Both the position numbers and the translations under genes were made by a program. 64,000 nt of DNA, taken from NCBI RefSeq assembly GCF_057098645.1, contig NZ_CM169472.1; one strand, given 5' to 3'. Below the pieces are notes generated by a model. The model worked only from the letters and a program-made list of their open reading frames with translations, was not told where the DNA came from and made no database searches. Of this stretch, positions 60,840 through 61,106 are shown piece by piece. Every line of letters begins with the position of its first letter. Position 1 is the stretch's first letter.

Positions 60840-61102
60840 TTATTGCCTGGTTGACGCTTCTGCATCGTAATGCACCACGCACTGCCAGTCGCTGCCCTGC
60901 TGGCAATATATCGCTTCGGTTTGCCCAGGGATCACCCATTGTATTTCCTCGCCGGGGGGACAGGTCAGCCAAATGCATAACCCGCAGCCGCCGCGTAAAT
61001 CACGGGGAATATCGCTGACGCGAAAAGTCATGCCCGCTGCCTGCAACGCCTTGCGGGTTTGTATGACGCCGACCGTGGAGTGAAATAAAAATAAAAACTC
61101 TT

Positions 61103-61106
<4 letters not shown>
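60840..61106 (-). CDS. Small Cys-containing protein (88 aa), translationally coupled downstream of yjiL; function unknown
   Basis: ATG overlaps the yjiL stop (ATGA); CGLC and TCPPGE motifs; no family assignment possible by eye. Confidence 0.45.

Follow-up and report, generated by a model that had tools for sequence, protein, structure and literature searches.

ytiA, a DUF3343 gene joined to the putative double-cubane cluster reductase operon of Escherichia coli, and its possible role as a sulfur/selenium carrier

The open reading frame that follows yjiL in the window, by which we mean the whole 64,000-nucleotide stretch of contig NZ_CM169472.1 (assembly GCF_057098645.1) that was analysed, is ytiA, an annotated and already known gene that belongs to a named but uncharacterised Pfam family. 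As judged from its own sequence and those of its relatives, ytiA is a genuine coding gene, the third of a yjiM-yjiL-ytiA operon, and is placed for translational coupling. The two genes ahead of it are predicted to encode a double-cubane [8Fe-9S] cluster-containing anaerobic reductase (a class II DCCP) and its ATP-dependent activase. Our leading proposal, which we put at about even odds, is that YtiA is a single-cysteine sulfur or selenium carrier partner of these two proteins; its carrier chemistry, its cargo and the direction of transfer are what we infer from the material below. As a sequence feature ytiA is nothing new, being annotated in essentially every E. coli genome. Its value lies in the handle that it gives on the cellular roles of double-cubane cluster reductases and of DUF3343 proteins. 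Comparative data physically tie DUF3343 to DCCP and activase genes in Enterobacteriaceae and Clostridia, genes for SelD, YedF and desulfurases occur within the same DCCP loci in other phyla, and E. coli offers a genetically tractable three-gene version for direct testing of the carrier hypothesis.

ytiA and its neighbours yjiL and yjiM

A sequence-only reading of the window had described an 88-aa ORF at 60840-61106 that begins with an ATGA overlap on the yjiL stop and contains the motifs CGLC and TCPPGE. All of these are present, the motifs at residues 41-44 and 48-53. The same reading called the ORF unassigned, which does not hold, as RefSeq carries the gene as ytiA (WP_000657677.1), and a Pfam search, the check that had been called for, placed the translation (MKEFLFLFHSTVGVIQTRKALQAAGMTFRVSDIPRDLRGGCGLCIWLTCPPGEEIQWVIPGQTEAIYCQQGSDWQCVVHYDAEASTRQ) in PF11823 (Se_S_carrier, formerly DUF3343) with 49.2 bits against a gathering cut-off of 25 (E = 3.6e-13). 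In common with other PF11823 members, YtiA is a small stand-alone protein (88 aa, where about 70-100 aa is usual) with one highly conserved cysteine. Positions 60600-61300 of the window are 100% identical to E. coli O145 strain RM9872 (NZ_CP028379.1), in which RefSeq names the product of WP_000657677.1 'DUF3343 domain-containing protein'. In K-12-type and other genomes the gene bears the name ytiA, and its product is given either that description or 'putative Se/S carrier protein'. None of the NCBIfam models matches YtiA, and a sequence search for relatives of solved structure found none, the best hit (E 0.04) being spurious.

The start codon of ytiA (61106-61104) and the stop codon of yjiL (61105-61103) have two bases in common (61105-61104), and the ORFs overlap by 4 nt. 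Some overlap at this junction is retained in all seven genomes compared, as ATGA in six and as TAATG in Kosakonia, and a purine-rich Shine-Dalgarno-like sequence precedes the ytiA start at the junctions of other genera as well. A more distant cassette outside these seven (L094) has an 18-nt gap in place of the overlap. No terminator-like site was found at the yjiL-ytiA junction in a scan of 60450-63300; the two such sites in that interval lie within yjiL and yjiM and are no more than chance would give, and promoter and terminator matches in general were no commoner than chance. No Rfam families were found in 58000-64000. Conservation of the overlap, and of the ORF in related genomes, had been named beforehand among the checks on co-translation with yjiL, and the retained overlap together with the occurrence of the cassette across genera bears out that ytiA is placed for it.

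The yjiL coordinates given here follow the RefSeq start, the longest ORF beginning at 61876. YjiM scores 531 bits against the equivalog model NF040772, 'double-cubane-cluster-containing anaerobic reductase' (cut-off 350), and resembles the solved DCCP 6ENO in sequence (E = 2.5e-75). The earlier description of yjiL and yjiM as a radical-enzyme activase/dehydratase pair must therefore give way to a DCCP reductase with its ATP-dependent reductase, the dehydratase being the older annotation. A review already lists YjiM as a probable class II DCCP with YjiL as its associate (PMC7317905). Both proteins are homologues of the DCCP/DCCP-R system of Carboxydothermus hydrogenoformans (6ENO, 7YYL; PMC7317905, PMC9351452), with which they share the pairing of an ATP-driven reductase with an [8Fe-9S] acceptor. 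That system, however, has two components, with no DUF3343 partner described, and its DCCP is functional in vitro in that form (PMC7317905), whereas the E. coli-type (class II) operon has ytiA as a conserved third gene.

At a coverage of at least 80%, 5384 of the 5426 complete E. coli genomes contain the core of ytiA (60896-61106). Homologues with 54-98% identity, all carrying PF11823, occur in Escherichia, Citrobacter, Klebsiella, Raoultella, Kosakonia, Phytobacter and Atlantibacter. The order HGD-D (yjiM), BcrAD_BadFG (yjiL), Se_S_carrier (ytiA) is found in Klebsiella pneumoniae, Kosakonia and Atlantibacter hermannii, in the last of which the flanking genes are entirely different. Two further lineages keep the cassette with YjiM 81% and 74% identical to that of E. 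coli and YtiA only 35% and 39% identical. The yjiM-yjiL-ytiA cassette moves as a unit between different genomic neighbourhoods, and co-oriented adjacency to DCCP and activase genes extends over five enterobacterial or gammaproteobacterial lineages as well as nine directly adjacent cases among the 80 loci described below. Pairwise Nei-Gojobori dN/dS values are 0.10-0.32 for ytiA, 0.05-0.24 for yjiL and 0.05-0.08 for yjiM; purifying selection acts on ytiA but is more relaxed there than on yjiM by a factor of 3-5. Its small size, its faster evolution than its neighbours and the replacement of its 3' end in about 12% of E. coli genomes might be taken to mean that ytiA is a chance reading frame or a decaying, functionless remnant. 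However, the Pfam match well over threshold, the presence in 99% of E. coli genomes, dN/dS well below 1, synteny and overlap kept across genera, a confident structure model and a replaced tail that is still homologous as protein effectively refute this.

Table 1. Positions of ytiA, its neighbours and the features discussed (window coordinates unless a locus handle is given)
Feature	Location	Strand	Remarks
ytiA coding sequence, 88 aa plus stop	60840..61106	minus	ATG-start ORF; PF11823; WP_000657677.1
PF11823-matching part of ytiA	60930..61097	minus	residues 4-59; profile positions 2-57 of 69
ATGA, ytiA start over yjiL stop	61103..61106	minus	plus strand reads tcat; translational-coupling arrangement
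GAGG, Shine-Dalgarno-like tetramer	61115..61118	minus	8 nt 5' of ytiA ATG, within yjiL 3' end
Cys41 codon TGC	60984..60986	minus	sole family-wide invariant Cys; end of predicted loop between strands 2 and 3
CGLC motif	60975..60986	minus	Cys44 frequent, not invariant
TCPPGE motif	60948..60965	minus	varies even within Enterobacteriaceae
Allele-specific ytiA 3' end, last ~18 codons	60840..60895	minus	nucleotide homology to common 85-aa allele stops at 60896
yjiL, ATP-dependent activase / DCCP reductase homologue (BcrAD_BadFG)	61103..61870	minus	TIGR00241, 361 bits
yjiM, double-cubane [8Fe-9S] cluster-containing anaerobic reductase (class II DCCP)	61880..63031	minus	NF040772
Pentapeptide-repeat protein gene, 722 aa	58359..60527	minus	between yjiK-like gene and ytiA
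24-nt tandem array	58471..58640		C-terminal part of pentapeptide-repeat gene
Pentapeptide-repeat gene to ytiA core, 368 bases	60528..60895
SelD directly after DCCP	L049:8157-9179, L065:8165-9193, L061:2190-3005
Two-DCCP loci	L068:6746-10318, L075:3949-9157, L050:6782-10268
PF09719 gene after DCCP-activase	L024:8911-9390; also L025, L026, L028
DUF3343 after Sulf_transp	L096:3932-5255, L097:3926-5252		14-nt overlap in L096

Cysteines and predicted fold of YtiA

A profile search of 1.8 billion representative proteins recovered 125 relatives of YtiA. Across 34 aligned sequences of 19-67% identity, F8, P34 and C41 are the only invariant residues, with L21, G42 and Y67 nearly so. Cys41 is likewise invariant in a 20-sequence alignment and in the 15 DUF3343 ORFs of the DCCP loci, and no locus that was fetched has a selenocysteine (TGA) at its position. 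On these alignments, the chemistry of the DUF3343 family rests on one cysteine. Nearly every enterobacterial homologue has CGLC, and CGxC is frequent outside that group. However, many homologues have Ser or Ala in place of Cys44, among them the orthologue in the L094 cassette (SCGLSI) and most of the Clostridial copies adjacent to DCCP genes, and several Clostridial copies have a CC dipeptide in place of CGxC. Cys49 is kept in about 90% of enterobacterial homologues and is absent outside enterics; with the TCPPGE motif it is confined to part of the Enterobacteriaceae. The weight that had been placed on CGLC and TCPPGE is thus justified for the first cysteine of CGLC and misplaced for the second and for TCPPGE, both of which vary. 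Candidate activase-DUF3343 fusions (P0125, P0142 and P0144) turned out on inspection to be frameshifted, low-quality sequences, and the long multi-stretch matches P0156, P0188 and P0219 are unrelated FG-GAP or Ig-repeat proteins; all six were discarded.

An AlphaFold2 model made with the 20-sequence alignment (pLDDT 86.7, pTM 0.77) has predicted strands at residues 2-8, 28-32, 43-49, 63-70 and 73-79, helices at 11-23 and 53-57, and a loop at 33-42. YtiA would accordingly be a small ferredoxin-like alpha/beta fold with Cys41 exposed on the loop between strands 2 and 3. PII/GlnK and CutA resemble YtiA in the predicted beta-alpha-beta-beta-alpha-beta(-beta) sandwich and in having a functional loop at that place. 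This likeness is marginal (Foldseek E about 0.02, TM about 0.5, 10-16% identity), and, unlike those proteins, YtiA has no nucleotide-binding motifs and no sequence relationship to them. Nor is YtiA TusA/SirA-like (PF01206), as judged by the TusA profile and a CPxP at the N-terminus of helix 1, and it has neither the invariant CxxC of a thioredoxin-like protein nor the at least three to four invariant Cys ligands of a small Fe-S ferredoxin.

These features bear on two alternatives to a carrier. If YtiA were to hand electrons to YjiL or YjiM as a redox partner of the thiol-disulfide (CxxC) or Fe-S/metal-binding kind, the wide occurrence of CGLC and CGxC, with Cys49 as a third thiol in most enterics, would be in keeping with that role. 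However, since only one cysteine is invariant, no conserved cluster or CxxC site is possible, and both a CxxC oxidoreductase and an Fe-S protein are therefore argued against; the replacement of Cys44, the absence of Cys49 outside enterics and a predicted fold that is not thioredoxin-like point the same way. The [4Fe-4S] cluster of an activase normally takes electrons from ferredoxin or flavodoxin, and a dithiol couple is not reducing enough to charge it. We consider an electron-transfer role highly doubtful. The earlier suggestion of a small redox or carrier partner is accordingly weakened in its redox half, as Cys44 and TCPPGE are not conserved, and keeps its carrier half, which gains from the Pfam name Se_S_carrier and from the genomic contexts of the family. 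It also appears quite improbable that YtiA is a non-catalytic, PII-like regulatory or structural subunit, one that carries no sulfur or selenium but binds YjiL or YjiM and might, for example, gate ATPase activity or protect the cluster. The resemblance of the predicted fold to PII/GlnK, CutA and DUF2179 proteins is a reason to entertain such a subunit, and the fast evolution of YtiA outside a short motif would suit a binding adaptor.

DUF3343 genes at other loci and the carrier proposal

With a DCCP alignment we scanned a single genome from each GTDB species. The 80 loci closest in DCCP sequence to C. hydrogenoformans (50-77% identity; Firmicutes, Deltaproteobacteria, Bathyarchaeota and others; 941 kb in total) were retained, and their ORFs, in fetched flanks of up to 7 kb, were searched by HMM and phmmer. 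In this set, chosen by similarity to one DCCP, an activase gene is present at 60 loci and DUF3343 at 15, in nine of which it directly adjoins the DCCP/activase genes; the remaining 65 have no DUF3343 within those flanks. YedF/TusA-like genes occur at 15 loci, SelD-like genes at 10 and class-V aminotransferase (desulfurase-like) genes at nine. Six of the 10 SelD-like ORFs were checked and all six exceed the TIGR00476 cut-off, as do two YedF-like ORFs that of TIGR03527 (YedF) and two class-V ORFs that of TIGR01977, a cysteine-desulfurase family that scores next to selenocysteine lyase. By our reckoning, a single-copy gene of the selD type should turn up well under once in a random 941 kb of genome.

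The DUF3343 gene stands between those for DCCP and activase in two species of Tepidibacter, Clostridium ihumii, C. niameyense, a Clostridiaceae MAG, a Tissierellia MAG, Lachnoclostridium An118 and Dorea, and it follows the activase gene, as in E. coli, in Firmicutes bacterium UBA3567 (L042). In four species of Desulfosporosinus and in one Poribacteria MAG, genes for a desulfurase, YedF and DUF3343 come within a few kb after those for DCCP and activase; the SelD gene lies among them in Desulfosporosinus, and in the Poribacteria MAG it is upstream of the DCCP gene. The three DCCPs of the 80-locus set that are closest to YjiM (51-58% identity) are all in DUF3343-containing loci.

Links between DUF3343 and sulfur or selenium trafficking are also found away from DCCP genes. 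In two cases a homologue (28-30% identical to YtiA) comes immediately after a YedE/YeeE-type Sulf_transp gene, another homologue follows a gene for a TusA/DsrE protein, and DUF3343 genes lie beside transporters and SelD even where there is no DCCP. Lin et al. noted the one highly conserved cysteine of DUF3343 and proposed a Se/S trafficking chaperone from the proximity of its genes to those of YedF and the Sec-lyase family; an activase and subunits of 2-hydroxyglutaryl-CoA dehydratase already figure among the DUF3343 neighbours in the STRING table that they give for Slackia (Lin et al. 2015, PMC5322559). In addition, duf3343 is among the five gene families that most often overlap selD ORFs (bioRxiv 10.1101/2022.04.13.486033). 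YtiA is like this family (PMC5322559) in falling within its 80-100 aa size range and in having the invariant cysteine of its P-R-x-L-x-x-x-C-G motif. However, no SelD, YedF or desulfurase genes were found near the E. coli ytiA locus, so that ytiA is not beside the genes that gave the family its name and is instead joined into a DCCP/activase operon. A Se/S-gene neighbourhood is a contextual trait of part of PF11823 and not a criterion for membership. We found no experimental study of YtiA or of any DUF3343 protein in the searchable literature, and none on E. coli ytiA, matches to that name being a Bacillus ribosomal protein paralogue.

In the mechanism that we propose, Cys41 of YtiA would covalently hold sulfur or selenium as a persulfide, perselenide or selenylsulfide and pass the chalcogen atom to or from the YjiM/YjiL reductase, with YjiL as the ATP-driven, electron-delivering partner of YjiM; in enterobacterial YtiA, Cys44 may assist. 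YtiA would then be a dedicated chalcogen relay for YjiM/YjiL, comparable in role to the TusA/YeeD/YedF carriers. These too are small alpha/beta proteins with one essential cysteine, and their genes adjoin those of YedE/YeeE-type transporters, desulfurases and SelD; DUF3343 occupies the equivalent slot after Sulf_transp genes. The relay might take either of two forms, one in which substrate or product is carried, such as carrier-bound S(0) or Se(0) that is reduced to sulfide or selenide, and one in which YtiA delivers a bridging chalcogen during cofactor maturation. A seventh, non-ligand cysteine is conserved near the opening above the cluster in class I and class II DCCPs (PMC7317905), and we speculate that it could be the exchange partner of YtiA. 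The carrier proposal draws on the single family-wide invariant cysteine and on the DUF3343 genes that lie beside SelD, YedF and TIGR01977 desulfurase genes elsewhere. Against it stand the 65 of 80 sampled DCCP loci that lack DUF3343, the two-component working of the C. hydrogenoformans DCCP in vitro, the lack of SelD, YedF and desulfurase genes near ytiA in E. coli and of selenocysteine at the Cys41 position in the fetched loci, and the rate at which YtiA evolves, 3-5 times that of YjiM and unusually high for a tight catalytic partner.

Taken by itself, the maturation form would make YtiA a cofactor maturation or repair factor, delivering the extra bridging sulfide (or selenium) that fuses two [4Fe-4S] cubanes into the [8Fe-9S] double cubane of YjiM. 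The single-cysteine features and the linkage to DCCP genes would serve it as well as they serve a relay, and cysteine-desulfurase-family genes lie beside DCCP-DUF3343 loci in Lachnoclostridium and Dorea. According to Haft, 955 of the 970 strong NF040772 DCCPs come from assemblies that encode SelD; selenium-compound processing was raised as an explanation, as was the formal possibility of a selenium-containing cofactor, in which case the correlation would reflect the cofactor itself (Haft 2022, bioRxiv 10.1101/2022.07.06.499078); the term 'DUF3343' was not found in that preprint. However, a DUF3343 gene is missing nearby in those same 65 loci, DUF3343 genes also accompany transporters and SelD without a DCCP, and the solved DCCP assembles an all-sulfur [8Fe-9S] cluster (PMC7317905). 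A role purely in maturation or repair therefore seems rather unlikely.

The relay that we favour could also be part of something broader, with yjiM-yjiL-ytiA as the minimal form of a widespread, ATP-energised pathway in which double-cubane proteins mobilise selenium (or sulfur). The chalcogen held on Cys41 of YtiA would be reduced at very low potential by YjiL-charged YjiM, and the selenide or sulfide produced would go to SelD and other consumers. We think this generalisation unlikely. If true, it would give DCCPs their long-sought physiological substrate and would account both for the co-occurrence with SelD reported by Haft and for the SelD, YedF, desulfurase and DUF3343 genes that lie beside DCCP genes.

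The DCCP loci had some further features. A SelD gene (over the TIGR00476 cut-off) comes directly after the DCCP gene, without an intervening activase gene, in two MAGs of Bathyarchaeota and one of Syntrophaceae, a physical linkage that complements the published co-occurrence of SelD and DCCP. Lachnoclostridium (L068), Dorea (L075) and a Tissierellia MAG (L050) each encode a pair of different DCCPs around single DUF3343 and activase genes, one DCCP being like that of C. hydrogenoformans and the other like YjiM (51-58% identity); a TIGR01977 desulfurase gene lies upstream in the first two. Several Desulfosporosinus and Peptococcaceae loci have, directly after the DCCP and activase genes, a gene for a C_GCAxxG_C_C 'putative redox-active protein' (PF09719), which may be another small Cys-rich accessory of DCCP systems.

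The ytiA 3' end and the adjacent insertion

The 88-aa allele of the window differs from the common E. coli allele of 85 aa in its 3' end, although W74, C76, H79 and Y80 are common to both. Of the 5426 complete E. coli genomes, 639 have the 88-aa-type 3' end, O157:H7 and O145 among them. This 3' end travels with an AT-rich insertion (32-40% GC, compared with 52-57% in yjiLM) that carries a gene for a 722-aa pentapeptide-repeat protein and has flanks extending to about 60895. Because the new tail is still homologous to the old at the protein level, the diverged 3' segment suggests recombination with a divergent Escherichia donor.

The 368 bases from the pentapeptide-repeat gene to the ytiA core are present in about 639 of the 5426 genomes. 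RefSeq calls the 722-aa protein only 'pentapeptide repeat-containing protein', and NCBIfam shows sub-threshold similarity to the type III effectors PipB, PipB2 and SopA. The part of its gene encoding the C-terminal region contains a tandem array of a 24-nt unit (8 aa, roughly QANDSTDK), with seven copies in the window and five in the otherwise near-identical RM9872, so the copy number of this array differs between strains.
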